Virus record (IMG/VR): IMGVR_UViG_3300026085_000093
Location: 172,367 to 236,366 of that record
DNA: 64,000 nucleotides
Origin: a virus
Taxonomy: Duplodnaviria; Caudoviricetes
Strand: one strand, 5' to 3'
Each line of letters opens with the position of its first letter. Positions within the stretch are counted from its first letter, which is position 1. The position numbers and the translations under genes are program-made. The notes under the pieces were generated by a model, which saw only the letters and a program-made list of their open reading frames with translations, had not been told where the DNA came from and ran no database searches. Positions 2 to 28,393 of this stretch are shown here, piece after piece.

Positions 2-3000
2 AGAAGTTATCTTCGTGCAACATCGCAAAAAGTTCTTAATCAACAGTTAGCACCTACAATATACGGTATCGAAGCAGCAAGAGACGAAATGCTGAAATGT
101 GTTCCTGATACAGATCCTGCTAACTTAGACTATAGATATAACATAATTGAAAACTTTGCAATTATTACAAATACTATTACACAAGGAGATAGCACTGCGG
201 TACCAGATGTAGTGTACAACGAACTTGTAGGTATAGATAGCGGTGTTATAGCAGCAAAAGATAACATTGTACAAAATAAAGATTTTATTATTGACGAAGT
301 TGTAAATTATATTTCAGATCAATTTACAGATTTATCATACGACCAAGACAAGTGTGAAAGAGATGTAAGACAAATCACAACTGCTGTTGCATATGATACT
401 GCATTAGGAACAAACTATTCAAGCGTTACAGCAGGTAGAGCATATGCTCGTGCAAATGCAAGTATAGTTTACCAAAAACAAAAAGTGCAAACTATTGCAG
501 CATACCAATACTTAAAATCACTTATGCTTGCATTACCTAATGTAGTAGCAAGTTCAACTGCTACAAGCAGAGTTAACAATGCTATGGATGAGATTATTGA
601 AATCCTTTCAGCAGGTGATAGCACAAGTGCAGACGATTACACATATCCTTCACCAACAGGTGTTATTGCAGCAAGAGAAAATGCAAGAGATCAACTTGTT
701 AACAACAAAGACTTCATTCAAGAAGAAATTATAAAGTGGGTAGATGAAAATTATCCTACGTTAGATTATGACCAAGATAATTGTTACAAGGATGTAGGAC
801 ATATTGTTGACGGATTAGTTTATGATATTTTATATGGCGGCAATTATGCAACTAGAGATGTAGCACAAGCATATTTTGTAGGTGCAGCAAGTCAATTAGG
901 AGCAGACGAAACTACTGCTACTATTGCAGCATATGGTAGATTAAAAGAAATTACAACACAGATTTTGCAAGGAGATCCAGTATTTAGGTCTTCCGGCAAC
1001 TTGTTAGTACAAGATACATCAGCAGCAAATGCAACAGGTGTTGAAGCAGAACGTGCAGACGAATATATTGATATTATTATTGAAGTAATTAACACAGGTG
1101 CATTGACAAACTTACCTGAAGTACAATATCCAAGTGTGCTTTGGGCAGCAGCAGATGTACAAGCAGCAAGAAGTTCATTGTTTGCAGCACAAGATAATTT
1201 TGCAACTAATATTACAAGTTATTTGCTTACAACATATCCAAACTTTACATATGATAGAACAAAGTGTAAAAGAGATGTAGAACTTATTTTAGATGCTGTT
1301 GTAAGAGATGTTAAACTAGGCACAAACCACAATAGTATTCAAGCAGGACAAGCATATCAAAGAGCAACAGCAACATATTTTGATGTTGCACAAAAACCTG
1401 CAACAATTATTTCAATTAGATATCTAAAAACACTTGCCGCAGCAGGTGCAGCAGGTAGCAGTGTTGCTGTTGAAAGAGTCAATGACAGATTTGATATTAT
1501 TCTAAACTTAATTGAATTTGCAGATCAAACTTTAACTACTGTACCAGATGGAGGCTTTGGTGCACAAACTGCATTACCTAGTGAAGGTAGAACATTCCCT
1601 GCACCGACACCAGCAAGTCAAGAATTAATCGATGCCAATAGATTATTACAAGCAAACAGAGATTTCTTAGTTGAAGATACAATTGCGTATATTGCAAATA
1701 ACTATTTTGTTTACGATAGTGCAAAGTGTGCTAGAGACACTGCATTAATTCTAGATGCTGTAACATATGACTTAGTTTTAGGTACAAATTACAATAGTAT
1801 TCAAACAGCACTTGCATATTATAATGCTAATGCATCTTTAGTGATAAGTGATCAACTTACAGAAACTGTTGCAGCAATTACATATTTAAGAACAGAAGTT
1901 GCTACATTAGTAGCAGCAGACGGACCAAGTGTAGCAGCATGTAATGCATTGTTTAATGAAATTATCGACATTCTGCAAAATGGTGTCGGTAATGCAGATC
2001 CTTTGACATTCACCGATCCGGGTGCAGACGTAAACAAAGCATATGCAAGAACATTACTACAAGCAAACCGTACATTTATTATTAGTGAATTAATTGCTTG
2101 GATTAATTTAAGTTTTCCAACTTTAGTCTATGATCAAGCAAAATGTGAAAGAGACACAGGATACATTATTGATGCTGTATCGCATGATATACAGTACGGT
2201 ACAAACTTTGCAACAAGAACAGCAGCACTAGCATATTTTGAAGGTACTGCATCACAGATTCCTGCGTCACAAAAAGATGAAACAATTGCTTCATATCAGC
2301 AGTTAATTGATATTGCCGATGATGTAATTATAGAAAACAGAGCAGGACAAATTCTTACAGGTAATCCAGCAAGTTCAGCAGAAATGGATGAACTAGCAGG
2401 GTTAGTTACCTACATTGTTGATGTTTTACAAGAAGAAAGCACAGAAAATCTTCCATCACTTTATGAGCCTGATCTAACTTGGGTTGCTTCTAACTTAACA
2501 GACTCAAGAGATTTAATTTTAGCAAGCGGTGACAGTTCTCAATCAGATCTTGTACAAAGTGTAATTGATTATATTAACATAAGTTTAAATGGATTAAGTT
2601 ACGACGAAGCAAAATGTCGTAGGGACAGTGAATATATTATTGACAGTGTGTCACACGATATGCTGTACGGCGGAAACAGAAGTATACTAATTAGCACTAG
2701 AGCATATTTTGATGACGGTGTTTCTACTATTGTTGGACAAGAGTTCCAAACTGCTGATGCTATTGAACACTTGAGAGATATTAGTGTTAGTATCATTGAA
2801 GGTGTTCCAATTGCTGTACAACCTGGAAACGGCGAAACACAAGATCTAAGCGGAACATTTGGTACTTCAACAGAAAGCGAAGTTGCAAACGAACTTTATA
2901 ATATTTTAATTCTTGCAATCACAGACAGTTTAGGACTGGGTACTACTCCACAAAATACTAATCCAGATTATAGCTGGATTAGTAGTAGTCTTGTAGAAGC

Positions 3001-5563
3001 AGCAGACAATATCCTTACAAATAGCACAACATATCAGCAGCAAGTAATTGATTATATTACTGCAAATATAATCGGTTTTAGATATAATGTAGAAAAGTGT
3101 AGAAGAGATACAAATTACATTATTGATGCAGCAGTTTATGATATGATGTATGGCGGTAACAAGCAAACACGTAGAGCAGCAGAAGCTTATTATAGTGGTA
3201 CAATTCTAAGTGCAGCAACCGTAGGTAATGCAGATCAACAAGATATAACTGAATTTACATATAAGCATCTAGCAAGAGTGTTAAGCGATGTTGCACAGAA
3301 CATAGATATTACACCTAGCGGCACACCTACCTTACTGCAAGAAACAGACGGTACAAATGGTAGTGCAGCAGCAGGATTAATTCTAAAAACTCTTGTATAT
3401 AAAATTGCTGAAGTTATTGAAACTACTGTAATTTCTGATTCAGGAAACACAGTATATCTTCCTATCGAACAAGATCACAACTATGAAGGCCTAGCATCTA
3501 TGGAAGACTATGCTGACAGACAATTGATTATGTTCAAAGCACAAGACATTGAAGATGAAGCAATTAGATTACTAAACTTAGAATATGGTGGTGTTGCAGA
3601 ACTTACATTATTCCCAGGTGTACTATCTGTAGAAAAAGGTACACTTGGTAACATGCAACGTGTAAGTACTGTATCAACTTCAGGACATGCATTTGAATAT
3701 GTTGGCGCAGGTATCACTTACAATGCACTTCCGTTCTTTGGCGGTTCACCGATTGCTGCAAACGAAATTGTTGAAACAAACACTGGTAAGGTATTTGCAG
3801 GCGGTACTGTTGACCAAATTGGTAACTTTAGAGTTGGTAATTTCTTTGCAGTTAATGCTCTAACAGGTGCTATTACTCTTAATGCTAACCAAATTGATTT
3901 AACAGGTATTGCAAGCATTGGTCCTTTCCAAAGATTTGGTATTCCAGTTGGTGTTGAATTAAAAGAAGTAAGTAATAATACAAACCTTATAGCAAGCACA
4001 GGTGCAGCAGATATCAATACTGTACCTACACAAAACGCTGTAGTACAATTCCTAAGCAACAACTATCTAAATAAAATCACAGGCGGCACAGTTGAAGGCG
4101 ATGTTACTTTTGAACTAGACATTGCGGTCGATGGCGGAGACTTAACAACTACTGCAAGTGAGTTTAACCTAGTTAATGATAATGCTAATACTGTTAACTT
4201 TGCTGGCGGCGCTGCAAACATTAACATTGGTGATTTGATTGGTACAACAACTATTAACAACAGCCTAGTTGTTAAAGATGATATCAAATTAGGAGAAAAT
4301 CCTACTACTAATGTTACAACTGATTCATTAATTGTAAACTTACTAAACACAACAGTAACAACAGTAAATGCAATGGGCGACGCGACTACAATTGTTATGG
4401 GTGCAGATACTGGTACGATGACGATCAACAACGACTTTGTTGTTATTGATAGTGATAAAAGTATTCAAGTACCGGTAGGAGATACAAGTGCTCGTCCGTC
4501 TGTACCAGTAATCGGTCAAGTACGCTTCAACACAGACTTACAGTTTTATGAAGGTTATAACGGTGTAAACTGGAGTTCACTAGTTGGCACTATCGATGCT
4601 GATCAAGATACATTTATTAGACCAGAAGTTGGCCCAGGTACTGACGAAGATACATTAGAATTCTACGCTGATGGTACAAAGAGAATGTTCTTAAATTCAA
4701 GCACATTGAATATTGATGAGACAATTGATGTTATAATTAACAGCGATACACAATCAAGAAGTACTGAAAGCGGTGCAGTTGTTGTTACAGGCGGCATGGG
4801 TATAGGTGGCAACTTATATGTTGGCGGCACGATAGGCGGTGATATTCAAATTGGCCATTTAGGAACAAGCACTCTTACAATTAGAGGCGAGACTGTTTAT
4901 GCTCCTGACACAATTAGACTTATTACAGATGCACCTGATAGCGCAGCAGATGATATTGTATATCCGTTAACACTTGCACACCATACTACCACTGGTGCAA
5001 TTACTGCCGGTGCTGGTACTGGTATGAAGTTTGAGTTAGAAACATTCCTAAACAACTTTGAAACCGCAGCACAAGTTGATGTTGTTAGCACAGATGTAAC
5101 AGGTGGTGGTGAAGACTTTGATATGATTATTAGCACCATGCACAATGGATTGCTAACTGAAAAGTTTAGAATCAGCGAACTAACTTCAACATTAACAACA
5201 AGTTTAGCGATTGAACAAAATCTTACTGTAACAGGTATATTAGATGCAGCAGCGTTTACTGGTTCTTTATTTGCAGATGACAGTACAGAAATTATTGATG
5301 CAATTAATAACAAATTAACTGTTGTAAATGCTGACATTGGAACGCTTATTTTAACTACTGATCTTGAAGTACAATATGGTGGTACTGGTGTAAGCACATT
5401 CACTGAAAACGGTATACTATATGGAAACATAGCAGACCCTGTACAAGTTACTGATGCAGCAGGTACAAGTGATATTAACGAGTCATTCCAAATACTAACT
5501 GTAACCAGCGATGTTGATTCAACACCAGTTTGGACTGATACAATCGATGGTGGTAGTTTCTAA
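2..5563 (+). CDS. Giant virion fibre/structural protein (VrlC-like), 5'-truncated by the window edge; 7 tandem helical C-x-R-D repeats, then fibre-type C-terminus
   Basis: Frame is open from base 2 (RSYLRATSQK...), so ATG 89 is internal. Repeats YDxxKCxRD...YD...GxN. Domain SGHAFEYVGAGITYNALP...GNFRVG is shared with the next ORF. Fibre motifs PVGDTSARP/GQVRFNTD; ends IDGGSF. Confidence 0.8.
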   Translation, partial: RSYLRATSQKVLNQQLAPTIYGIEAARDEMLKCVPDTDPANLDYRYNIIENFAIITNTITQGDSTAVPDVVYNELVGIDSGVIAAKDNIVQNKDFIIDEVVNYISDQFTDLSYDQDKCERDVRQITTAVAYDTALGTNYSSVTAGRAYARANASIVYQKQKVQTIAAYQYLKSLMLALPNVVASSTATSRVNNAMDEIIEILSAGDSTSADDYTYPSPTGVIAARENARDQLVNNKDFIQEEIIKWVDENYPTLDYDQDNCYKDVGHIVDGLVYDILYGGNYATRDVAQAYFVGAASQLGADETTATIAAYGRLKEITTQILQGDPVFRSSGNLLVQDTSAANATGVEAERADEYIDIIIEVINTGALTNLPEVQYPSVLWAAADVQAARSSLFAAQDNFATNITSYLLTTYPNFTYDRTKCKRDVELILDAVVRDVKLGTNHNSIQAGQAYQRATATYFDVAQKPATIISIRYLKTLAAAGAAGSSVAVERVNDRFDIILNLIEFADQTLTTVPDGGFGAQTALPSEGRTFPAPTPASQELIDANRLLQANRDFLVEDTIAYIANNYFVYDSAKCARDTALILDAVTYDLVLGTNYNSIQTALAYYNANASLVISDQLTETVAAITYLRTEVATLVAADGPSVAACNALFNEIIDILQNGVGNADPLTFTDPGADVNKAYARTLLQANRTFIISELIAWINLSFPTLVYDQAKCERDTGYIIDAVSHDIQYGTNFATRTAALAYFEGTASQIPASQKDETIASYQQLIDIADDVIIENRAGQILTGNPASSAEMDELAGLVTYIVDVLQEESTENLPSLYEPDLTWVASNLTDSRDLILASGDSSQSDLVQSVIDYINISLNGLSYDEAKCRRDSEYIIDSVSHDMLYGGNRSILISTRAYFDDGVSTIVGQEFQTADAIEHLRDISVSIIEGVPIAVQPGNGETQDLSGTFGTSTESEVANELYNILILAITDSLGLGTTPQNTNPDYSWISSSLVEAADNILTNSTTYQQQVIDYITANIIGFRYNVEKCRRDTNYIIDAAVYDMMYGGNKQTRRAAEAYYSGTILSAATVGNADQQDITEFTYKHLARVLSDVAQNIDITPSGTPTLLQETDGTNGSAAAGLILKTLVYKIAEVIETTVISDSGNTVYLPIEQDHNYEGLASMEDYADRQLIMFKAQDIEDEAIRLLNLEYGGVAELTLFPGVLSVEKGTLGNMQRVSTVSTSGHAFEYVGAGITYNALPFFGGSPIAANEIVETNTGKVFAGGTVDQIGNFRVGNFFAVNALTGAITLNANQIDLTGIASIGPFQRFGIPVGVELKEVSNNTNLIASTGAADINTVPTQNAVVQFLSNNYLNKITGGTVEGDVTFELDIAVDGGDLTTTASEFNLVNDNANTVNFAGGAANINIGDLIGTTTINNSLVVKDDIKLGENPTTNVTTDSLIVNLLNTTVTTVNAMGDATTIVMGADTGTMTINNDFVVIDSDKSIQVPVGDTSARPSVPVIGQVRFNTDLQFYEGYNGVNWSSLVGTIDADQDTFIRPEVGPGTDEDTLEFYADGTKRMFLNSSTLNIDETIDVIINSDTQSRSTESGAVVVTGGMGIGGNLYVGGTIGGDIQIGHLGTSTLTIRGETVYAPDTIRLITDAPDSAADDIVYPLTLAHHTTTGAITAGAGTGMKFELETFLNNFETAAQVDVVSTDVTGGGEDFDMIISTMHNGLLTEKFRISELTSTLTTSLAIEQNLTVTGILDAAAFTGSLFADDSTEIIDAINNKLTVVNADIGTLILTTDLEVQYGGTGVSTFTENGILYGNIADPVQVTDAAGTSDINESFQILTVTSDVDSTPVWTDTIDGGSF

Positions 5564-5669: not shown

Positions 5670-8600
5670 ATGGCAACCAGAATTAGACACAAGCGAAGTG
5701 CGGTCGCTGACAAGAAACCTATAGTTTCACAATTAGACAGCGGCGAATTAGCAATTAACACAGCAGACGGTAAAGTTTTCCTACTTAGAGATGACAATAC
5801 TGTTCAAGATATTACAAGAAGAATTTTTTCTAAAGATACTGAATTAGCAGTTAACGAACCTGATGATAGTACATCTGGCACCATTGATATGACAATTGAC
5901 GGTGAAAAGAAATTTATCGGTTCTATTAGCGACTTAGAATTTCTTGATGATGTTACTATTGACAATGCTAAGTCACTGAAGATGAGAGAAGCAACTGCTT
6001 CAGGTCTTGACAGTATTAATATTAAAGCGCCTACTACTATTCCAAGTTCATATGATATTGTTTTACCAACAGAAAATGGAATCGATGGACAGGTTTTACG
6101 TCTAACAAGTGATGGTTCTTTAGCATTTGAAAACCCAGATGTTTACGGTGGTAACGTTGTGTATGTGTCTGCAGAACGTGGTAATGATGCTAATGATGGT
6201 TTGAACAAACCTGTAAGAACAATCAAACGTGCGTGTCAAATTGCTTCTGGTTTAGTTTATAATGTAGACGGTACAACAAACGGTATACGTGTAAACGTCA
6301 AAATTGCTGTAGGTGATTACGAGGAACAAAACCCGGTTATTGTTCCAGACAACACAGTTATCAAAGGTGACGGTTTGCGTGGTTGTATTATCCGTCCTGC
6401 AAACGCAAACCAAGATATTCTACGTGTTAGAAACGCTTGTTATTTTGGTGAATTTACATTTAGAGATAAGGTTGATGCTAACTTTGTTCCTTTATGGACT
6501 GGTGATTATTGTGTTGCATTTGACGATCCGAATGATGCAACTGTAGATAGAACAGGTTACACTAACCTACCTGATACTGCTCCATTCATTACTGTTTCGC
6601 CATATGTACAAAACTGTTCAATTCTTTCTTTCCTTGGTCTAAACGGTGCAAAAATTGACGGTGCTAAGATTGTTTCTCCAAACATTGGTCTAATTCCATT
6701 AGAACAAGAAAATCCAGTGCTCGGTGCTACTCCTGAACAAGGTAAGTCTATGGTTGCTAACGCATTTACTATGCTTAGTTTCGGTGGTACAGGTTGGCGT
6801 CTACTAAACGATGCTTATGCACAGATCGTTTCTTGTTTCCAAATTTTCCTACTAAACGGTGTTTATACACAGTCAGGCGGTTATTGTTCAATTACTAACT
6901 CTGCTACAAACTTTGGTTTGTATTCACTACGTTCATCAGGTTATTCACCTAAAGCATTCGTTTTTGACCGTGCTTTTGTTACAGCAACAGGTCAAAGTGA
7001 AGGCTTACAAACAGTTAGTATTGTTGGTTTAAATCGTACTGCACCAGTTGAAGAATTCGTTTTACGCTTTAGAGATCCTGAATATAAAATTGCTTACGAT
7101 CTTATTCAAGGCGAAACACAAAATATTATTGACGATACTATAACTTATATCACAAACAGTGTTGCAGCCGCAACGCCTGGCGATATATGGTATTTGTTTA
7201 ATTACGACGAAGCAAAGTGTCGTAGAGATTTAAGTATTATTTTAGATGCTGTTAGTAGAGATACATGGGCAACTGCTAATGCTTTGACTAGACAGGCAGC
7301 ACTTGCATACTATTCTCAACGTATTGCAGATAGTTCTAACATTACTATCAGTGGACAAGAAGAACAAACAATTGATGCAATTGAAGAAGCAAGTAGACTA
7401 ACAGGTATTGTACTTACAGATCTTGATAGTGAACCTAGAGCATACGTAGATGAACTATTTGATTTGGTTAAAAATGCAATTGCAGATCCGGACAGTATTC
7501 CGGCATCGTTTGACGTAAGTTCAGAAGGTGAAATTACAAACCAATTTAAAGATCCGCCCGATGAAGTTTTATTTAATGGTGGATCAGGTGTTTCTGAAAT
7601 TACAAATATTTTTACAAAAACAGCACACGGACTTGTAAATGGTGAACAAGTTGTATATAGTGCTAACGGAAATGTTCCAATTCAGGGACTTGACGAAGAG
7701 CAAACCTATTATGTGAAACTAATTAATGTAAATGAATTTAGTTTGACATTTGATGACAGTTTAGAGTTTGATGTTAATATTATTGCAACATCTAGCGGTA
7801 CTCACAAATTCCTTACAAACATCAAAGAATTCTTTGTAAAAGAAATTATTTCAAGTCACACAACATATCAAAAGCTTATTTTACCTTCAGGTAGTGAAGG
7901 TTACGCATTTGTTCCAGGTAGACAAATTACTGCTACAACAGGTGCAGCAAATAACCGTGCTATTGTTTATAGTTGGACACCTAACCTTAGAGAACTTGTA
8001 GTTTCAATCGAAGAAGTTGCAGTAGGTGAATCTACACAGAGAGTACAATTTAGTAATTTAAGTATTATTGATGACGATCACACACCTAGTCCTAACACAA
8101 ATATCGGTGTAAGTGAAGTACAACCATTTGTCGGTTATTCAACCGCAACATTTACAATTGAACCTACAGTTGCAGGCGAACTACTAACAAATCTTGTCGC
8201 GCTTCCTGAGAAAGCAATTTGGTTACATAGACCTTCAATTGTTAACAGTTCATCACACACTTGGGAATTTGCAGGGTCGGGTACAGACTATAACGCCTTA
8301 CCACAAAACGGCGGTAATACAAGAACAGAATACGAACAGTTTGAAGAATTACCAGGACGTTGTTACTCATCAGGTACAAACGAACTTGGTGACTTTAAAG
8401 TTGGTGACTTTATTACAGCGTTTAACAGAACTGGTAACATTACGTTTAGAAACAAAGTTCAGGTGGACGAACTTGATGCTTTGAGACTAAGTCTTTCTAA
8501 TGTTGCCATTGAAGAAATTTCAACAAGTGTTAACTTAGGTGACGATGAAATTGGCGGTCCGAGTGATTCAAGACTATCTACACAGTTAGCAACAAGAAGT

Positions 8601-11600
8601 TTCTTATCAAACAGATTAGGAGGATTTATTGATAAATCTGTTTCAACTGCGGCAGTTCCTGGTGCTATTGTTCAGTTGAATACTAATGGTCAGTTGAATC
8701 CAGATTTGATTCCTGCTACACGACAGTTTACAAGTACAAACACAGATGGATATGAATCAAGACTTACACAAGTTGACGAAATTCCAGCAATCGATCTAAA
8801 AGCAGGTGATATCGGTACAGAAGAATATGATCAAATCGAATTAACATTTTCATCACCAATTTCAGCAAATGACGGTGATTTAATTACACAACCTGTAACA
8901 GGCGCTAGGGGTTTAGCAAAAGGTAATTATGCTTCATCAACTAACTTATTAGTTGCTAGTGAAGATAACCAATTCAAGCCAGGTGAGGACTCAACAGGCA
9001 CCGACTTTGATACTACAAACAATATCTTCATTGCGGGGGTTGACACTGGACAAGCACCATTAACACTTGGTTCGGTATCAGAAATTACTGATAACTTCTT
9101 CTTAAAAAGTTCTAACTCTAGTCAGTATCTTGTATTAGATTCAAGTGGTGCGCCTTTCAACTTTACAGTTGAAACAATTACTAATGTTGAAAGAACAGGC
9201 AATGTTGCTACAATTACAACAAGCGGCAACCATAACCTTGCAATTGGTAACAATGTTGAAGTTGAGTGTAATGATACACTTTACAACGAAAACGGCCTAG
9301 TTACAGGTGTACCTAGTACAACAACATTTACAATAGAAAACACAGGATCTAATGAAGGCAGCAAAGCAGCAACAGGTACAGTAAGGACCATTGTTACTTC
9401 TGCAGACGGCAACGCACAAGGTGCAGTTACAGAAACACGTTTTGGTGTATGTACGAACGTGGATAACGCTAATATCACTGGCGGTAGTGGTTATACACCT
9501 ACACTAGGTACTCTTGTTTACGAAATGGTAGACTTACAAGCAAAAACTGGAGTAGGTACAGGTGCAAAAGCAGATATTACTGTTACAGCAGGACAAATCA
9601 GTGATGTGGATCTACGTAGAGGCGGTACAGGCTATGCAGCAGGTGATTTACTAGAAGTAAATGCAAGTGATGTAGGCGGTACAGGTAGTGGTTTTGAAAT
9701 TGAAATTGCTGCTATCGAAGATAGAGCATATGTAAACATTTTAGGTGGCGAACTTTACGTGGCAAGTGCATCATCGATTGACTTTATTGAAGACAATGAT
9801 GCAGTAAGTTCTAAAATTACTACTACACTAGATGACAGCATTGTGAATCAGTTTTTAGCAGGTACTATAGCAGGCGGCGGCGATGTTGACTATACAACCT
9901 ATAGAATTACAATGACCGCCCATGGATACTCAGACGGTGATCCTATTAGATATAATACATTAGGTAATGTTGCAATCGGCGGATTACTAAATGGTAGTGT
10001 GTATTATGCAAAGCGTATTGACGCAAATACTATCGAAGTATACGAAGATTTTAGTTTGTTAAATCAAATTGAATTCTTAACAACTCCTGCTAACAACGCC
10101 CATCAATGGACAAGATTTAACGTTAACATTTATGATAACAGTATTATTGTTCTAAACCACGGCTTAACAACTGGTGACGCTATTAGAATAGAAGAAGAAG
10201 ATGATGGAAGTTCAGGAACTGGACTATTTTCTATAAACGGTACTCAAGTTATAACAGGTTCAAGATTCTTTATTGGTTCTGTTACAACTAACAGTTTCAC
10301 CCTACATACACTACGTTCAGATGCTTTAAGCAGTATTAACGGACTTGTAACAAATGCTTCGGATATTACTGCAACCGGTACAGGTGATGCAGATGTTATT
10401 CCAAATAATGTGCAAGTTAACACAGTAGTCAATACATCGAGTAGATTGAAAGCAAACTGGAATACACTTGCTGTTACAAACATTGATGCAAGTAACATTA
10501 TTTCAGGTACTGTATCGCCGAGCAGATTAGGTTCAAGTGGTATTGCAAGTAGTGATACATTCTTAAGAGGTGATAGTGCTTATGCTGTTGCAGTTCAAAC
10601 ACTTACAAAAGCCAGCACAACTGACAATCCAATTACACTTACTGGTCCAAACACCAGTGGCGACTATTATGGTGCAGTCGATATCGGTATTGCTAATGTT
10701 GATTATGACCCAGGCGGTACATATTCTACACTAGGTACAAGTAGATTCTTCCAACAACAATTTGATGTTGACGCTGCTGGCACAGGTCAAGTGTTTATCA
10801 AAGATGGTGTAGTTGATGCAGGCACATTAGACGGTTTAGATAGCAGTTATTTCCTTAACCCTGCTAACCTAACAAGCAATGTGCCTGTTAACAGAGGCGG
10901 TACTAACCTAAGTACATATGCTGACGGTGACTTGATTTATGCACAAACATCAGGTACACTAAATGCCCTTAATATTGGTAGACAAGGAAATATACTTGTA
11001 GTAAACAGTGGTTATCCTGTATGGGGTGATGCCGTTGATGTCTTAAATAATTTAGATATAGGTGCAGCAGATACAAGTTCTAAGAGTACTGCTACTGGTA
11101 AAGTTTACAATGAAAATCTTACAACTGTTGAAATAAGCGGTGAAGCAGATGTTACTAGAATTGGTGCAAGTACATCAACTAGAGCAATTACTTCATTTAT
11201 TGACGGATATGATGCTGCAACAAGTCAAGTTGTTGCTATCAATTTAAATAGTTTTACAAGAAACACAAATGAAAACGTAAACAACACAGACGACTTTATT
11301 CCGCTTTCTAGCACAGCAACAATTGAAGTTGGCATGGTTGTTACAGGAAGTGCAAGTTTACAAGCAAACACAGTAGTAACAGGTGTTTCAGATGATGTAG
11401 TATATATTGACAAACCTACAACAGGCACTATTCCAACAACATCTACTTTAACTTTTACTTACACACCAGAAGTACTAGGTATTAGAGCAGGCGATTTTGT
11501 TACTATTGCAAGTAGCGGTGTTGCTTCATTAGATGGTACATGGCCAGTATTAGGTGCAACAGTCAATGCAACTTCGTTTACTATACAAACAGAATTAAAT

Positions 11601-14600
11601 GTTACAGTAAGTAGTTCAGGCGGCGTTGCAGGTAGTGCAGTAATTAATAATAAACTAATTGTTAAACATCGAAAAGTAATTTTTGGCGATGCAGAAGCAA
11701 GTGCAACACCAGCAGATGTAGAAATACATGGCGCAGCAGGTATCGGTACAGACATCGGCGGCGGCGAAATTAAAATTGTAGGCGGTCTTGGAACTGGTGC
11801 AGGTACAGGTGGAGACTTTGTTGTAGAAACTGGCACAGTTACAACAACAAGCGATTTCCTACAAAGTCCATCAGAAAGATTGCGTATCGATACAAGCGGT
11901 GTTTTAACTTATACAGGTTATGCAAAATTTACAACTACTGCTGGTATAAAAATTCCAGTAGGTACAAGCGCACAACGTCCAGGCGCACCTGGTGTAGGTA
12001 CAGCAGCAGCGCAAGGCCAAATTCGTTATAATACTAGCGACAGTACATTTGAAGGTTACGATGGAAGTAACTGGGGTTCATTGGGCGGTGTTAAAGACGT
12101 TGACCAAGATACCAAAATTGAAGCTGAATCTAGTGCTGGAGTAGATAATGATCAGTTAGATTTCTATACAGCAGGCACACAGCGTATGCAAATCGGTGCA
12201 ACTGGTGACCTAGCATTTGGTGATTCGTTGAATAAGTTTACTGTTGCTTATGCAACTGGTACTGCAACATTTGCAGGAGACTTAACAGTTTCAGGTAACC
12301 TAACAGTAGATGGTACAACTGTTACACTAAACACAACAACACTAGACGTTGAAGATATCAACATCACAGTAGCAAAAGGCGCAGCGAATGCTGCCGCAGC
12401 AGACGGCGCTGGTCTTACAGTAGACGGTGCAAATGCAACATGGACTTATGATGCATCAAACACTAGTTGGGATTCAAGTGAAGATATTAATCTTGTAAGC
12501 AGTAAAGCATATTTTATCAATGACGTAAGTGTTCTAAACTCTACAACACTTGGTGCAAATATTGTAAACTCTAGTTTAACTGTTGTAGGAACACTTAATA
12601 CTGGTTCAATAAGTTCAGGCTTTGGTAATATTAATATTGGATCATCAAATCTAACAGCAACAGGCACAATAAGCCTAGGTGCAACTAGTTTCAACGATAA
12701 TAATATTACAAACGTTGGTACAATTAGTTTAGATACAATCCAAAAAGATGCAGGCACAGGAATCAACTTTGCATCAGGAACAATTGTAACAGTAAGCGAC
12801 ACAACTGAATCTACAATAGCAACAGATGGTGCATTAATTGTTTCAGGCGGTGTTGGTATTGCTAAAAAACTAAGAGTTGGCGGTGTTATATACGGCGATG
12901 GTAGCGGACTAACAAATCTAAATGCGTCACAGTTACTAAGTGGTACTATTCCGGATGCAGTGCTTCCTACTTCACAAACAGGAAAAACATTTACAAGTGA
13001 TATCACAGTAAATGGACACTTGATCGGTGAAGGCGGTGGAAGCAGTGCTACTAACTTCTTTGCAGGAGGAGGTGCTGCTGTAACAACTGGTATAGACTCA
13101 GTCGGTGTAGGAGACGGTGTATTTGGTGCTGTATTAACAGGCAATCAAAACACCGGTGTTGGTAAAGATGCTCTTGCATTAGTTACTGCATCAGCAAACA
13201 ACACAGCAATGGGTGCATACACACTTTCACAGATTGATGCAGCAACAGGCGGCAACACAGCAATCGGTGCTGAAAGTATGCAGAACTCAATTACTGCTAA
13301 TGCAAACGTTGCTATTGGTTATAAAGCACTAGAAATTGCAAATGCAAGTAACAACGTAATTATTGGATACGGCGCAGGTGCGACAATTACAACAGGTAGT
13401 AACAACATTGTTATTGGTAAAGATGCTGCACCAACAGCAAATACCACAGACAATGAAATTACATTAGGTACTTCTTCGCATACAAATCTAAGAATACCAG
13501 GTGTAGGACTAACTGTTAACACTACAACATTGTCATTTAGTGGTACTACTGGTTTTGCAGGTGTCGGTACTTCACTTACTGCACTTAATGCAAGCCAACT
13601 TACAAGTGGAACTGTACCAGATGGTAGAATTTCAAGTTCAAGTGTAACACAGCACGAAACTGACATTGATGCTGTAGGTACACTAAACGCAGGTGCAATT
13701 AGTTCTGGCTTTGGTAACATTGATATTGGTACAAGCACATTTACTGGTAACGGTAGTGGTCTAACATCACTAAACGCAAGTAACTTATCAAGTGGTACTG
13801 TTGCAGGTACAAGACTAGGCGGCAACCAGTCAATGAGTGGTATTAAGACGTTCTCAAACACTACTGAAGCAAGCAGCACAACAACAGGTGCTGTTAAAGT
13901 AAGTGGTGGTGTTGGTATTGCTAAAAACCTACATGTTGGCGGAACAATTACAGGTAATGGTAGTGGTCTAACATCACTAAACGCAAGTAACTTATCAAGT
14001 GGTACAGTACCTAACGCAAGAATTAGCGGTAGTTACACAGGTATTACTGGTACTGGCGCACTAGATGCAGGTCAAATTACCAGCAACTTTGGTAACATTA
14101 ACATTGGTACAAGTACATTTACTGGTAACGGTAGTGGGCTTACAAATGTTAGTGCAGATACGCTAGATGGTATTGATAGCACACAGTTCTTACGTTCGGA
14201 TGCTAACGATACAGCAAGTGGCGTTATTAGTTTAGTAGGTGCAGGCGCACAAAGACTTGTTATTAGAAACACAACAAACGCAGGCGGTGCTAGAATTGAC
14301 TTTACTGACCATGCATCTAATACGCAATATGGTAGACTAAACTTTGAGCATTCAGACAGTGCGTCACCTGGCAGTGCATATGGTGCAGTATTCAAATTCC
14401 AAACAACAGAAACAAACTTAGCAGTTACTATTGATGGACCGGGTGACTTCTATGTCAACGGAAACAAAGTATGGCATGCTGGTAACGATGGTGCAGGTTC
14501 AGGACTAGATGCTGACACAGTTGACGGACAAGACATTGGCGATTTTGTTAACGGCGCAGGAGTAGACAACGGACTTACTACAATTAGAGTAAACGATGCA

Positions 14601-25063: not shown

Positions 25064-28000
25064 ATGGCTTTAACATCACCAGGCGTACAGGTCAGCGTTA
25101 TAGATGAGAGTTTTTACACTCCTGCTGAACCAGGTACAACACCACTAATTTTTGTGGCAACAAAACAAGATAAATCAAATCCTGCAGGCACAGGTATTGC
25201 CCCAGGTACAACAGCAGCAAATGCTGGCAAAGTATATTTAATAAGTTCACAGCGTGAACTATCAGAAACATTCGGCGATCCATTGTTCTACACAGATAAC
25301 AATGGTGCTTCGATTCATGGGGGCGAACAAAACGAATACGGTTTACAAGCAGCATACAGTTTCTTAGGCGTAGCAAATAGAGCCTATATTGTAAGAGCAC
25401 CAGTAGACACAAATGCAATCACAGCAAGTGCAACAGAAACAGCAGGTAAGCCTGCTAATGGTGCATGGTGGTTTGATACAAATGATTCATTCTACGGTGT
25501 GTTTGAATGGAACGGTGCAGCGGCTACTACAACAGGCGGACAAACATTTACTAACAAAGTTCCAACTGTAATTACAGATACAACAAAAGTTGTTGACTAT
25601 GCAGGCGCAGACTATACACCAAAAACATCAGTAGGTGCTGTAGGTGACTATGCACTAGTAGCAGTTACAACTACTAACAAACTATGGTACAAAAATGCAG
25701 ACGGTACTTGGGTAGAAGTAGGCGGTGCTGCATGGAGAAAAAGTTGGCCAGCAGTAACTGGTACAGCAGCAAATCCAACACTAACAATTGGTCAAGAACT
25801 AATTATTCGTGTTGAAGAAGCAAATAGTACTTCAACAGAGCATACAATTACACTTACAGGTACAACTGTTACATCTTTGGTTAGCCAAATTAATGTAGAT
25901 GCAGGACTTATAGCCGCAGGTGTTACTGCAAAAAATAACAACGGAAGACTTTCACTATATAATGCTGGTGGTACAACTGGCGGCAAGGGCGACTTGATCG
26001 ATGTTTTTGGTGATGCAGCATTGTTAAGTGCTCTAGGCATTACAGCTGGCGAATATTACTCACCAGAACTAACTATTGCTCCACATACAAGTGTTCCAGA
26101 GTATAAAACAAATGACACAGAACCAAGACCAACAGGTTCTATTTGGGTCAAAACAACAACACCTAATTTGGGTGCAAACTGGAATGTAAAACAGTACAGT
26201 TCAGCAACAGATGCTTGGACAACTGTAAGTGCTCCAATCTATGCAAATAACCACACAGCAATTTATCAAATGGATTCATCGGGTGGCGGCGCTGGTATTG
26301 CAGAAGGTGCTATCTATGTACAAAGTAACACAAGTGAAGAAGATTACGACAACTTAGCAAACTTTAAGATCTATCGTAAGAGTGGAAGCGGTGCAGTTAC
26401 AATTACATCAGCAAAAATTACAGCATCTACATTTCCAGCAGGCACATATTCATTTACAATGTCAGAAAGTTTATCAGGACAAAACTCAATGGATAGTGCA
26501 AAAACAATTTCGTTTACAGCAGCAGGTGCAACTGCTGATGCAGATACACTAGCAGGTGATATTAACTCAGCAGGATTTACAAATGTAAGTGCAAGCGTAG
26601 ATTCACAAAACAGAGTTGTTATTTCACATGCACTAGGTGGCGAAATTCGTATTGTTGATACAGACGGCATTGTTGATAACGCATATACAGTGTTTGATTC
26701 AACAGATGCTACAACTACTACAAACTTCTATTACACACCAGGTACTGACTCTAGCACATCACCTAAGCAATATATTGTTACATGGTGGAAAGCATTGTCA
26801 TATACTGCTTCAGAAGGTGCACCTACAAGTACACCAGCAGACGGTGCTCTATGGTACAGCAGCGTAGTAGATGAAGTAGACATGATGATTCATAATGGTA
26901 CATCATGGGTTGGTTATCATAATTTTGACCACACAGGCGGCGGCTTAGTAGGCGCAAGTAGCACAAACGATCCAGCAGGACCGATTGTTGCAGCAAGTGC
27001 TCCAACACAACAGTCAGACGGAAGTGCGCTAGTTGTTGGTGATCTTTGGATTTCAACAGCAGACTTAGAAAACTATCCACAAGTTTACAGATGGACAGCA
27101 GCAGGTGTTTGGGCATTACTAGACAACACAGATCAAACAACTGAAAACGGTGTACTATTTGCAGATGCACGTTATAACACAGCGGGTGCAAACAGTGACG
27201 AAGCAGGCACAATTGCAGATCTACTAGTAAGCAACTACTTAGACCCAGATGCTCCAGATCCAGCACTATATCCAAAAGGTATGTTGCTATGGAATACACG
27301 TAGAAGTGGGTTCAACGTAAAAGAATTCAAGCGTGATCATATTGATATCAATGCTGAAAACGCTCGTAATGGCGACGAATCTATGGCAGGCTACTATGCT
27401 AACCGTTGGGTAACAAAATCAGCAAACAACGAAGATGGTTCAGGATCATTTGGACGTAAAGCACAACGTAAAATTGTTGTACAAGCGTTACAAGCAGAAA
27501 TGAACAGCAACCAAGATATCCGTGATGACGAATCAAGAATCTTTAACTTGATTGCAACTCCAGGCTATCCAGAACTTATTGGTGAAATGGTAACACTAAA
27601 CAACGATCGTGGATTAACAGCGTTTGTTGTGGGTGATACTCCAATGAGACTAACACCTGATAGCACATCATTAACAAACTGGGCAAACAACATTGCAGGC
27701 GCAGTAGAAGATAATGATGACGGTGCAGTTACTAGTGATGAATACTTAGGCATGTATTATCCAGCAGGATTTACAAGTGATAACGCAGGAAACAACATTG
27801 TTGTTCCAGCATCACACATGGCACTAAGAACAATTGCATTAAACGACCAAGTTGCGTTCCCCTGGTTTGCTCCAGCAGGCACAAGACGTGGTAGTGTAAC
27901 TAATGCTACAGCATCAGGATATATCACAAGTGAAGGTGAGTTCCAAAGTGTTGCACTTAACGAAGGACAAAGAGATACATTATATTCTAAGAATATTAAC

Positions 28001-28393
28001 CCTATTTCGTTTATTAACGGAGCAGGACTTGTTGTCTTTGGACAAAAAACTCGTGCAGCAAATGCAAGTTCACTAGATAGAGTTAATGTTGCTAGACTTG
28101 TAGTTTACTTACGTAGTCAACTTAAAACACTTGCTAAACCTTTTATCTTTGAACCAAATGATAAGATTACAAGAGATAGTATCAAAGGACAAGTTGAAAG
28201 TCTACTAATTGAACTTACATCACTAAGAGCAATTTTTGACTACCTAGTTGTGTGTGACGAAACAAACAACACTCCGACAAGAATAGATAAAAACGAACTA
28301 TATGTAGACGTTGCTATCGAACCAGTTAAGAGTGTTGAGTTTATTTACATTCCACTACGCCTTAAAAACACAGGAGAAATTGCAAGTCTATAA
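25064..28393 (+). CDS. gp18: Tail sheath protein (T4 gp18-like), enlarged to 1109 aa by internal insertions
   Basis: MALTSPGVQV..IDES, LSETFGDP, PWFAPAGTRRG, RDTLYSKNINPI, FGQKT, LDRVNVARL, FEPND...TR, IEPVKSVEFIYI. Confidence 0.93.
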   Translation: MALTSPGVQVSVIDESFYTPAEPGTTPLIFVATKQDKSNPAGTGIAPGTTAANAGKVYLISSQRELSETFGDPLFYTDNNGASIHGGEQNEYGLQAAYSFLGVANRAYIVRAPVDTNAITASATETAGKPANGAWWFDTNDSFYGVFEWNGAAATTTGGQTFTNKVPTVITDTTKVVDYAGADYTPKTSVGAVGDYALVAVTTTNKLWYKNADGTWVEVGGAAWRKSWPAVTGTAANPTLTIGQELIIRVEEANSTSTEHTITLTGTTVTSLVSQINVDAGLIAAGVTAKNNNGRLSLYNAGGTTGGKGDLIDVFGDAALLSALGITAGEYYSPELTIAPHTSVPEYKTNDTEPRPTGSIWVKTTTPNLGANWNVKQYSSATDAWTTVSAPIYANNHTAIYQMDSSGGGAGIAEGAIYVQSNTSEEDYDNLANFKIYRKSGSGAVTITSAKITASTFPAGTYSFTMSESLSGQNSMDSAKTISFTAAGATADADTLAGDINSAGFTNVSASVDSQNRVVISHALGGEIRIVDTDGIVDNAYTVFDSTDATTTTNFYYTPGTDSSTSPKQYIVTWWKALSYTASEGAPTSTPADGALWYSSVVDEVDMMIHNGTSWVGYHNFDHTGGGLVGASSTNDPAGPIVAASAPTQQSDGSALVVGDLWISTADLENYPQVYRWTAAGVWALLDNTDQTTENGVLFADARYNTAGANSDEAGTIADLLVSNYLDPDAPDPALYPKGMLLWNTRRSGFNVKEFKRDHIDINAENARNGDESMAGYYANRWVTKSANNEDGSGSFGRKAQRKIVVQALQAEMNSNQDIRDDESRIFNLIATPGYPELIGEMVTLNNDRGLTAFVVGDTPMRLTPDSTSLTNWANNIAGAVEDNDDGAVTSDEYLGMYYPAGFTSDNAGNNIVVPASHMALRTIALNDQVAFPWFAPAGTRRGSVTNATASGYITSEGEFQSVALNEGQRDTLYSKNINPISFINGAGLVVFGQKTRAANASSLDRVNVARLVVYLRSQLKTLAKPFIFEPNDKITRDSIKGQVESLLIELTSLRAIFDYLVVCDETNNTPTRIDKNELYVDVAIEPVKSVEFIYIPLRLKNTGEIASL

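Follow-up and report, generated by a model that had tools for sequence, protein, structure and literature searches.

Phycobiliprotein-type globin repeats with a conserved candidate bilin site in the giant tail-fibre-like protein of a marine uncultured jumbo phage

The window analyzed here, a 64,000-nucleotide (nt) stretch of the 236-kb phage record IMGVR_UViG_3300026085_000093 (CheckV completeness of 66%), opens inside the gene of a giant tail-fibre-like protein that carries a tandem array of repeats resembling the alpha chain of phycocyanin, CpcA. The full open reading frame (ORF) codes for 2,334 amino acids (aa) at genome positions 170925-177926, with its 5' end ~1.44 kb upstream of the window, and a 2,328-aa protein from elsewhere is 96% identical to the product. 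The residue numbers in an earlier sequence-only reading of the same DNA count from the ATG at 89, which is not the gene start; the frame is already open at window base 2, and the gene starts upstream. The motif cysteines which that reading listed, counted from this ATG, are found exactly where it placed them, at aa 89, 232, 393, 547, 686, 843, and 1004, as are their codons (Table 1), and its motif count is equally correct, with C-x-R-D in six repeats and C-Y-K-D in one. The motif does not include the two remaining cysteine residues, at aa 4 and 618.

Seven repeats of ~150 aa, each with one motif cysteine, are present in the window, and the upstream part of the same ORF contributes a partial one, the eighth. 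When aligned with MAFFT, the seven units have pairwise identities of 22-35% and share eleven invariant columns (Y60, C65, D68, I72, D79, G83, N85, A94, Y95, T111, and L118). The hidden Markov model (HMM) of the seven units recovers each of them with E values of 1e-51 to 1e-66. Two forms of the repeat can be distinguished. The long form, found for example at window positions 593-1093 and 1961-2443, features an insertion of ~20 aa in which the Gln at profile position 139 (Q139) has a conservation of 95%; the insertion is not present in short-form repeats such as repeat 4. The assignment of the protein to the virion fibres, as made in the sequence-only reading, agrees with its place in the tail module and with its matches to tail-fibre families: the PHROG families 5342 and 4527, both annotated as tail fiber, match the first giant ORF with E values of 2e-73 and 2e-66. 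PHROG families 3442, 25721, 24138, and 1325 match the protein at aa 1181-1504. By homology and gene position, the giant repeat protein is tail-fibre-like and is predicted to be present in the virion.

Table 1. Repeat units and giant fibre genes in the window (window positions in nt)
Feature	Position	Strand	Evidence
3' 5.5 kb of the 2,334-aa giant tail-fibre-like gene	2..5563	+	Open frame; PHROG 5342 and 4527
Repeat, second of the eight in this gene, K-C-E-R-D, Cys codon at 353	164..613	+	HMM aa 26-175, E 1.5e-57
Repeat, long form, N-C-Y-K-D (Lys replaces Arg), Cys codon at 782	593..1093	+	HMM aa 169-335, E 3e-66; PF00502 E 0.0098
Repeat, K-C-K-R-D, Cys codon at 1265	1076..1528	+	HMM aa 330-480
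Repeat 4, short form, K-C-A-R-D, Cys codon at 1727; unit modelled	1538..1987	+	PF00502 E 5.4e-4
Repeat, long form, K-C-E-R-D, Cys codon at 2144	1961..2443	+	HMM aa 625-785; in two-repeat model
Repeat, long form, K-C-R-R-D, Cys codon at 2615	2414..2923	+	HMM aa 776-945
Last repeat, K-C-R-R-D, Cys codon at 3098	2909..3424	+	HMM aa 941-1112
Non-repeat C-terminal part of the fibre-like protein	3425..5563	+	No repeat HMM match past aa 1112
Second giant fibre gene, 3,373 aa	5670..15791	+	Repeat HMM; PHROG tail-fibre families

The repeats show a resemblance to phycobiliproteins in several sequence comparisons. The Phycobilisome family PF00502 is the best Pfam match of repeats 4 and 2 (Table 1), in the register proposed by the sequence-only reading. 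A six-frame search of the genome with PF00502 reaches 18.3 bits, and about 10 homologous giant proteins have precomputed PF00502 matches. In the Protein Data Bank (PDB), phycocyanin alpha chains are the top matches of two repeat profiles, built from 7 and from 123 repeats, and HMMER alignments to 6jpr_A and 1f99_A put the Cys, Arg, and Asp of the motif on Cys84, Arg86, and Asp87. The reference for profile-profile comparison comprised 112 CpcA and 91 CpcB sequences from cyanobacterial contigs. Against the 112 CpcA sequences, hhalign gives a probability of 86-87% (P of ~4e-6 over 121 columns), against CpcA and CpcB together it gives 83%, and the reversed repeat profile, which serves as the control, gives 0.1%. 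A protein-atlas search with a single repeat returned no usable match.

The profile alignment also supports the positional equivalence of C-x-R-D with Cys84, Arg86, and Asp87 of CpcA. K63, C64, R66, and D67 of the repeat align with K83, C84, R86, and D87, with posteriors of 0.97 for K63 and at least 0.999 for the other three residues. High posteriors likewise pair G69-Y70 with G89-Y90, Y77 with Y97, G82-G83 with G102-G103, and A113 with A132 of CpcA. Y94 and T110 of the repeat align with Y110 (posterior of 0.34) and Y129 (posterior of 0.77); these two tyrosines of CpcA we take to line the alpha-84 bilin pocket, which a literature check could not confirm. The sequence-only reading had counted 11 of 21 ungapped identities between helix E of repeat 4 and a variant CpcA sequence; compared to the CpcA encoded on a Thermosynechococcus contig, the count is 12 of 21. 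The likeness that it saw in the flanking helices is borne out only in part, with posteriors of 0.3-0.6 for helices A and B and 0.5-0.9 for helices G and H next to at least 0.95 for helix E. The reliable part of the CpcA alignment begins near repeat residue 40.

The predicted structure leads to the same assignment. An AlphaFold2 model of repeat 4, computed with an alignment of 123 diverse repeats, has a predicted local distance difference test score (pLDDT) of 89.2. In a Foldseek search of the PDB, all of the best 50 matches are phycobiliproteins or their derivatives, with template-modelling (TM) scores of 0.60-0.70. An exhaustive search with VIA-align gives Z scores of 14-17 for ApcE, allophycocyanin, phycocyanin, and phycoerythrin and ranks photocobilin (13.8), RsbR (13.0), and heme globins (at most 12.6) below them. 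AlphaFold DB clusters add phycobilisome proteins and one bilin biosynthesis-associated globin (BBAG) as structural matches, and BFVD returns cyanophage proteins named "structural" and "tail". The model is thus a globin-type phycobiliprotein fold and not another helical bundle, and the repeat unit is, as modelled, a six-helix phycobiliprotein-type globin core. The N-terminal X-Y hairpin is absent: in the single-repeat model, residues 1-27 form no helix (pLDDT of 59-68), and in a two-repeat model the same segment is an ordered linker and not a hairpin. This second model, of the units at 1538-1987 and 1961-2443, shows a pLDDT of 91.2, a predicted TM score (pTM) of 0.88, and a well-ordered linker, which predicts a rigid array. 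With Pfam, profile-profile comparison, and the AlphaFold and Foldseek results in agreement, the repeats are very probably true homologues of phycobiliproteins by fold and sequence, and sequence comparison places them closest to the alpha-phycocyanin type.

Conservation of the putative chromophore site was determined in 2,404 distinct repeats. Conservation is highest at D78 (98%), D67 (97%), Y94 (96%), C64 (91%), R66 (91%), T110 (89%), and N84 (85%), and the Cys/Arg/Asp site is the best-conserved part of the repeat. Repeats that bear the cysteine retain the Arg, Asp, Asp, Tyr, and Thr residues of the site at 97-100% (T110 at 94%; overall 98%), whereas repeats without it retain them at 29, 62, 76, 53, and 28%, respectively (overall 49%). 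The contrast holds within bins of equal conservation defined by 24 control columns, with 92-99% compared to 43-77%. Judged by this pattern, the ancestral site is under selection and is lost as a unit. Such co-loss fits a ligand or reaction site and not a set of independent structural residues.

The repeat family is large and is found in phages. Among 1.8 billion proteins, it forms 1,639 clusters at 50% identity, with up to 37 repeats per protein. A tblastn search of repeats 4 to 7 against 50,697 cultured phage records returns 69 matches, all of them cyanophages. With the repeat HMM, 9 repeats are detected in S-PM2, spread over two giant ORFs, 4 each in P-HM1 and P-HM2, 6 in P-RSM6, and none in the cultured heterotroph-infecting jumbo phages Atu_ph07, Phosso, PA5oct, and SCTP-2. 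No repeat was found with the HMM in 5 and then 301 cyanobacterial genomes, a search in which it also missed the phycobiliproteins, a distance that plain HMMER cannot bridge. A scan of IMG/VR with degenerate DNA motifs returned 80 loci, all true repeats, most of them on fragments for which the completeness given by CheckV points to genome sizes of 200-400 kb; psbA is present in none of 32 repeat-bearing contigs of at least 40 kb. The large implied genomes and the lack of psbA indicate that the family is not confined to the classical psbA-bearing cyanomyoviruses. A layout of two giant fibre genes (2,532 aa and 3,793 aa, with Peptidase_S74) is also seen in a T4-like marine phage contig.

The distribution among cyanophages can be compared with published adsorption behavior. 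P-HM1 and P-HM2 fail to adsorb in the dark, in contrast to P-SSM2 and P-SSP7, which adsorb in the dark (PMC6628666). The adsorption of S-PM2 is described as light dependent and independent of host photosynthesis by Jia 2010, as cited in PMC6628666. The three light-requiring phages all carry the repeats in the numbers given above, and the repeat HMM finds none in the dark-adsorbing P-SSM2 or P-SSP7. Repeat presence therefore matches the published light/dark adsorption phenotype in 5 of 5 cyanophages. The motif cysteine was checked in S-PM2 and P-HM2, whose repeats retain it, mostly within K-C-x-R-D.

A second line of evidence comes from genes for bilin synthesis, namely, heme oxygenase (HO) and the ferredoxin-dependent bilin reductases (FDBRs), the enzyme class of PcyA, PebS, and PcyX. 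The sample contains only two complete repeat-bearing genomes, G330 (364 kb), which belongs to the clade of the phage described here, and G323 (271 kb); both carry an HO gene that overlaps an FDBR gene, with scores that exceed the Pfam cutoffs, and G323 additionally encodes CpeT. Close relatives of the G330 FDBR are carried by 376 IMG/VR contigs. Repeats are present in 6 of 6 further FDBR-bearing contigs of the G330 clade of at least 100 kb and in 3 of 13 FDBR-bearing contigs of 66-96 kb. Among the 50,697 cultured phage records, an FDBR occurs in 27, comprising 26 cyanophages and Pelagibacter phage Mosig. Given this rarity, the presence of an HO-FDBR cassette in two independent repeat-bearing lineages is notable, and the link of the repeats to bilin synthesis is real but partial.

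The cassette loci themselves differ in their surroundings. In G330, the overlapping HO and FDBR genes (positions 7280-12330 of locus L253, which is G330:277000-296999) have genes for ClpS, HSP20, and CsgG-SH3 as neighbours, and the cassette, at 287 kb, is separated by at least 80 kb from the genes that code for repeats, at 53, 67, and 206 kb. In G323 (IMGVR_UViG_3300034050_000451), the HO-FDBR pair adjoins a GroEL-like chaperonin gene. This record is without psbA and codes for a 2,778-aa protein at 52-59 kb with 13 short-form repeats that span profile positions ~24-133. Contigs of 143-148 kb with genes identical to those of G323 are rated 81-84% complete, which indicates that the 271-kb record may contain duplicated sequence. 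The HO-PcyX pair of Mosig is located directly upstream of the neck genes (locus L354, 35653-44330) and is preceded by a ferrochelatase gene and four 2-oxoglutarate-Fe(II) oxygenase genes.

A multistep origin can be proposed for the repeat proteins. A phage lineage would have captured a phycobiliprotein domain, dropped its N-terminal X-Y hairpin, and amplified it into rigid head-to-tail arrays, 8 copies in the present protein and up to 37 in relatives, that would make up the shafts of giant tail-fibre-like proteins in the virion. Each unit would retain the ancestral pocket, made up of Lys-Cys-x-Arg-Asp on helix E together with a Tyr and a Thr/Ser aligned with Tyr110 and Tyr129 of CpcA. The motif cysteine would carry a covalently bound bilin, supplied in cyanomyoviruses by the cyanobacterial host and in some jumbo phages of this clade by their own HO and bilin reductase. 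Such a fibre would be pigmented and possibly light responsive. The explanation as a whole, with captured phycobiliprotein arrays whose cysteine carries a bilin, is credited with slightly less than even weight. Its central step, a pocket that still binds a bilin as predicted from the conserved site, is the leading hypothesis and is put forward tentatively.

A number of observations weigh against this explanation or parts of it. The best repeat scores 20.4 bits against PF00502 and does not reach the Pfam gathering threshold of 22.2 bits, and similarity to CpcB alone is weak, with an hhalign probability of only 7.7%. The comparison with adsorption behavior includes only five phages, with P-HM1 and P-HM2 near identical and P-SSP7 a podovirus, and pigmented cyanophage particles are not known to have been described. 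The sequence-only reading had looked to phage-encoded bilin synthesis as a partner of the repeats; no HO, FDBR, CpeT, or CpeS gene is found in the 236-kb record. An FDBR is likewise found in 0 of 43 partial repeat-bearing contigs (30 and 13; 12-64% complete, in sum >10 genome equivalents), so that the cassette is either confined to a subset at best or systematically distant from the fibre genes. Mosig carries HO and PcyX and has no repeat anywhere in its genome, and P-SSM2, which presumably carries bilin genes, is also without repeats; phage bilin synthesis can thus do without the repeats. An S-type lyase was not found, and attachment would therefore need to be autocatalytic, as in ApcE and smURFP, or be performed by the host. 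The co-occurrence with bilin genes may also reflect a shared aquatic or cyanobacterial niche.

Structural exaptation alone is a possible alternative, somewhat doubtful as it stands. Here, the captured gene would be reused as a rigid helical brick, with the conserved cluster stabilizing the fold or the contacts between repeats or chains and no chromophore involved. This would agree with the confidently rigid two-repeat model and with the lack of bilin genes in this record and most repeat-bearing contigs. Position 73, an Asp in 81-84% of the repeats, aligns with Arg93 of CpcA, which we take to be a residue of the alpha-beta interface, and some phages, for example, P-SSM4, retain degenerate repeats that lack the site. 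A structural role leaves three features unexplained, namely, why the chromophore triad is the best-conserved part of a domain only ~20% identical to phycobiliproteins, why 91% of the repeats retain a lone unpaired cysteine in a protein that is extracellular, and why the residues of the site disappear together.

A rather improbable alternative is that the pocket is kept for another use, as a site for another small ligand or a metal, for a host-surface ligand in the manner of an adhesin, or for modification or cross-linking of the cysteine, which tailoring enzymes encoded beside the tail genes could install. A radical-SAM thioether (C-x-x-D) and a thioester or ester cross-link are conceivable variants of this idea. 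Invariant polar residues that are foreign to phycobiliproteins, D78, N84, and, in the long form, Q139, point to such a remodelled site. T4-like cyanophages, however, bear the same site without a cluster of tailoring enzymes, no family is known to use K-C-x-R-D on globin helix E except for bilin, and HO-FDBR cassettes are present in two repeat-bearing lineages. Convergence or chance, with a generic helical bundle and a coincidental motif, is highly improbable: each sequence score against phycobiliproteins is marginal when taken singly and helical folds inflate structural Z scores, but three independent lines give the same register, phycobiliproteins occupy the whole top of both structure searches above other globins, the reversed-profile control is negative, and identities to CpcA reach beyond the motif.

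The genes around the repeat protein are those of a tail module. The neighbours comprise the second fibre gene and genes for a sheath stabilizer, a sheath, a tube, a baseplate connector, and the large terminase. The second fibre protein contains a single repeat at window positions 7035-7484 (aa 460-609; repeat HMM E value of 2.8e-21), its C terminus matches PHROG tail-fibre families, and the two giant fibre proteins share an N-terminal domain of ~290 aa (32% identity; E value of 1.5e-37). The tail sheath (window positions 25064-28393) is unusually long, at 1,109 aa, a feature common to jumbo phages of the Atu_ph07, Phosso, and G330 types. By sheath, the nearest cultured phages are the heterotroph-infecting jumbo phages Atu_ph07 and Phosso (44-46%) and PA5oct (49% over part of the protein), and the nearest relatives overall are the uncultured ~360-kb phages G330, G338, and G339, with sheath identities of 53-59%. 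DNA of the phage is present in marine, aquatic, and salt-marsh metagenomes. A megablast search of the fibre gene against cultured phages gave no match, and psbA and pmoC were not found in the 236-kb record.

Read in the opposite orientation, the 236-kb record is collinear with positions 8.5-198 kb of G330. The G330 region at 199-364 kb is without a counterpart in the record; it holds the HO-FDBR cassette and a third repeat protein (200-208 kb). The left end of the record coincides with the gene of this third repeat-rich fibre, which suggests that the repeats caused the break in its assembly. Of the genes that flank the cassette in G330, most are missing from the record or occupy other places in it, and the flanks of 80 FDBR loci show no nucleotide similarity to this genome. 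ORFs at 69-101 kb of the record match paralogous enzyme families that are located at 240-264 kb in G330.

Phycobiliproteins are known from the antennae of cyanobacteria and algae, and a small number of cellular paralogues has been discovered recently. Its use by a large phage-specific branch in tandem bricks of virion fibres represents a new context for this fold, and no paper on phycobiliprotein-like domains in phage fibres, including the giant proteins of cyanophages, was found in the literature. The purpose of phage bilin genes becomes testable as well; no phycobiliprotein-like protein other than the repeats has been seen in genomes of this kind. On the role of hemO and pcyA/X in phages of nonphotosynthetic hosts, the authors of PMC11480375 "can only speculate." It appears unlikely that the fibre repeats are bilin-loaded, light-responsive modules that act as a light gate for cyanomyovirus adsorption and as the acceptor of phage bilins in jumbo phages. 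If true, the repeats would be the long-sought "light-sensitive tail fibres" of S-PM2 and P-HM1/P-HM2, the missing acceptor for the bilins of phage HO and PcyX-type enzymes in jumbo phages of nonphotosynthetic or unidentified hosts, and the first pigment-protein or photoreceptor that forms part of a virion. Repeats that attach bilins by themselves would be possible compact, concatenable fluorescent tags.

Compared to CpcA, the phage repeat shows the same globin-type helices A, B, E, F, G, and H, with a TM score of 0.65 and Z scores of up to ~17 for the family, and has its K-C-x-R-D at the position of K83-C84-x-R86-D87. In contrast to CpcA, it is without the X-Y hairpin, shows only ~20% identity and a score below the Pfam threshold, and features the additional invariant residues D78, N84, and T110, with a chromophore that is predicted only. 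The phage repeats are fused as 8-37 copies in one virion-protein chain, whereas CpcA takes part in the alpha-beta discs of the phycobilisome.

The best structural match of the repeat is the bilin-binding domain of ApcE (4xxi_A; Z score of 16.9), and smURFP, derived from allophycocyanin alpha, is among the Foldseek matches. The phycobiliprotein-fold domains of ApcE and smURFP attach bilin without a lyase, a property that the phage repeats would need. ApcE resembles the fibre protein in that its domain is contained in a large multidomain protein; it differs in having one such domain followed by linker repeats, with no tandem array, and in being an intracellular part of the antenna. Nonantenna relatives of the fold, BBAG-1 and the photocobilins, are also among the structural matches of the repeat. 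BBAGs are phycobiliprotein-fold globins of nonphotosynthetic bacteria that are linked to bilin synthesis genes (PMC10151467). These proteins and the photocobilins are single-domain cellular proteins encoded beside FDBR genes; the phage repeats, unlike them, are tandem units of giant proteins that do not occur as a single globin adjoining an FDBR or HO gene, and they resemble CpcA more.

The closest parallel is found in the giant fibres of T4-like cyanophages, S-PM2p091, PSSM4_080 ("gp7"), and the 4,458-aa and 3,682-aa ORFs of P-HM2, which belong to the same repeat family. These homologues are annotated as tail fibre or virion structural proteins and are encoded by the same pair of giant fibre genes. 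The phage described here is, in contrast, not T4-like, and its sheath is nearest to those of the Atu_ph07, PA5oct, and G330 jumbo phages.

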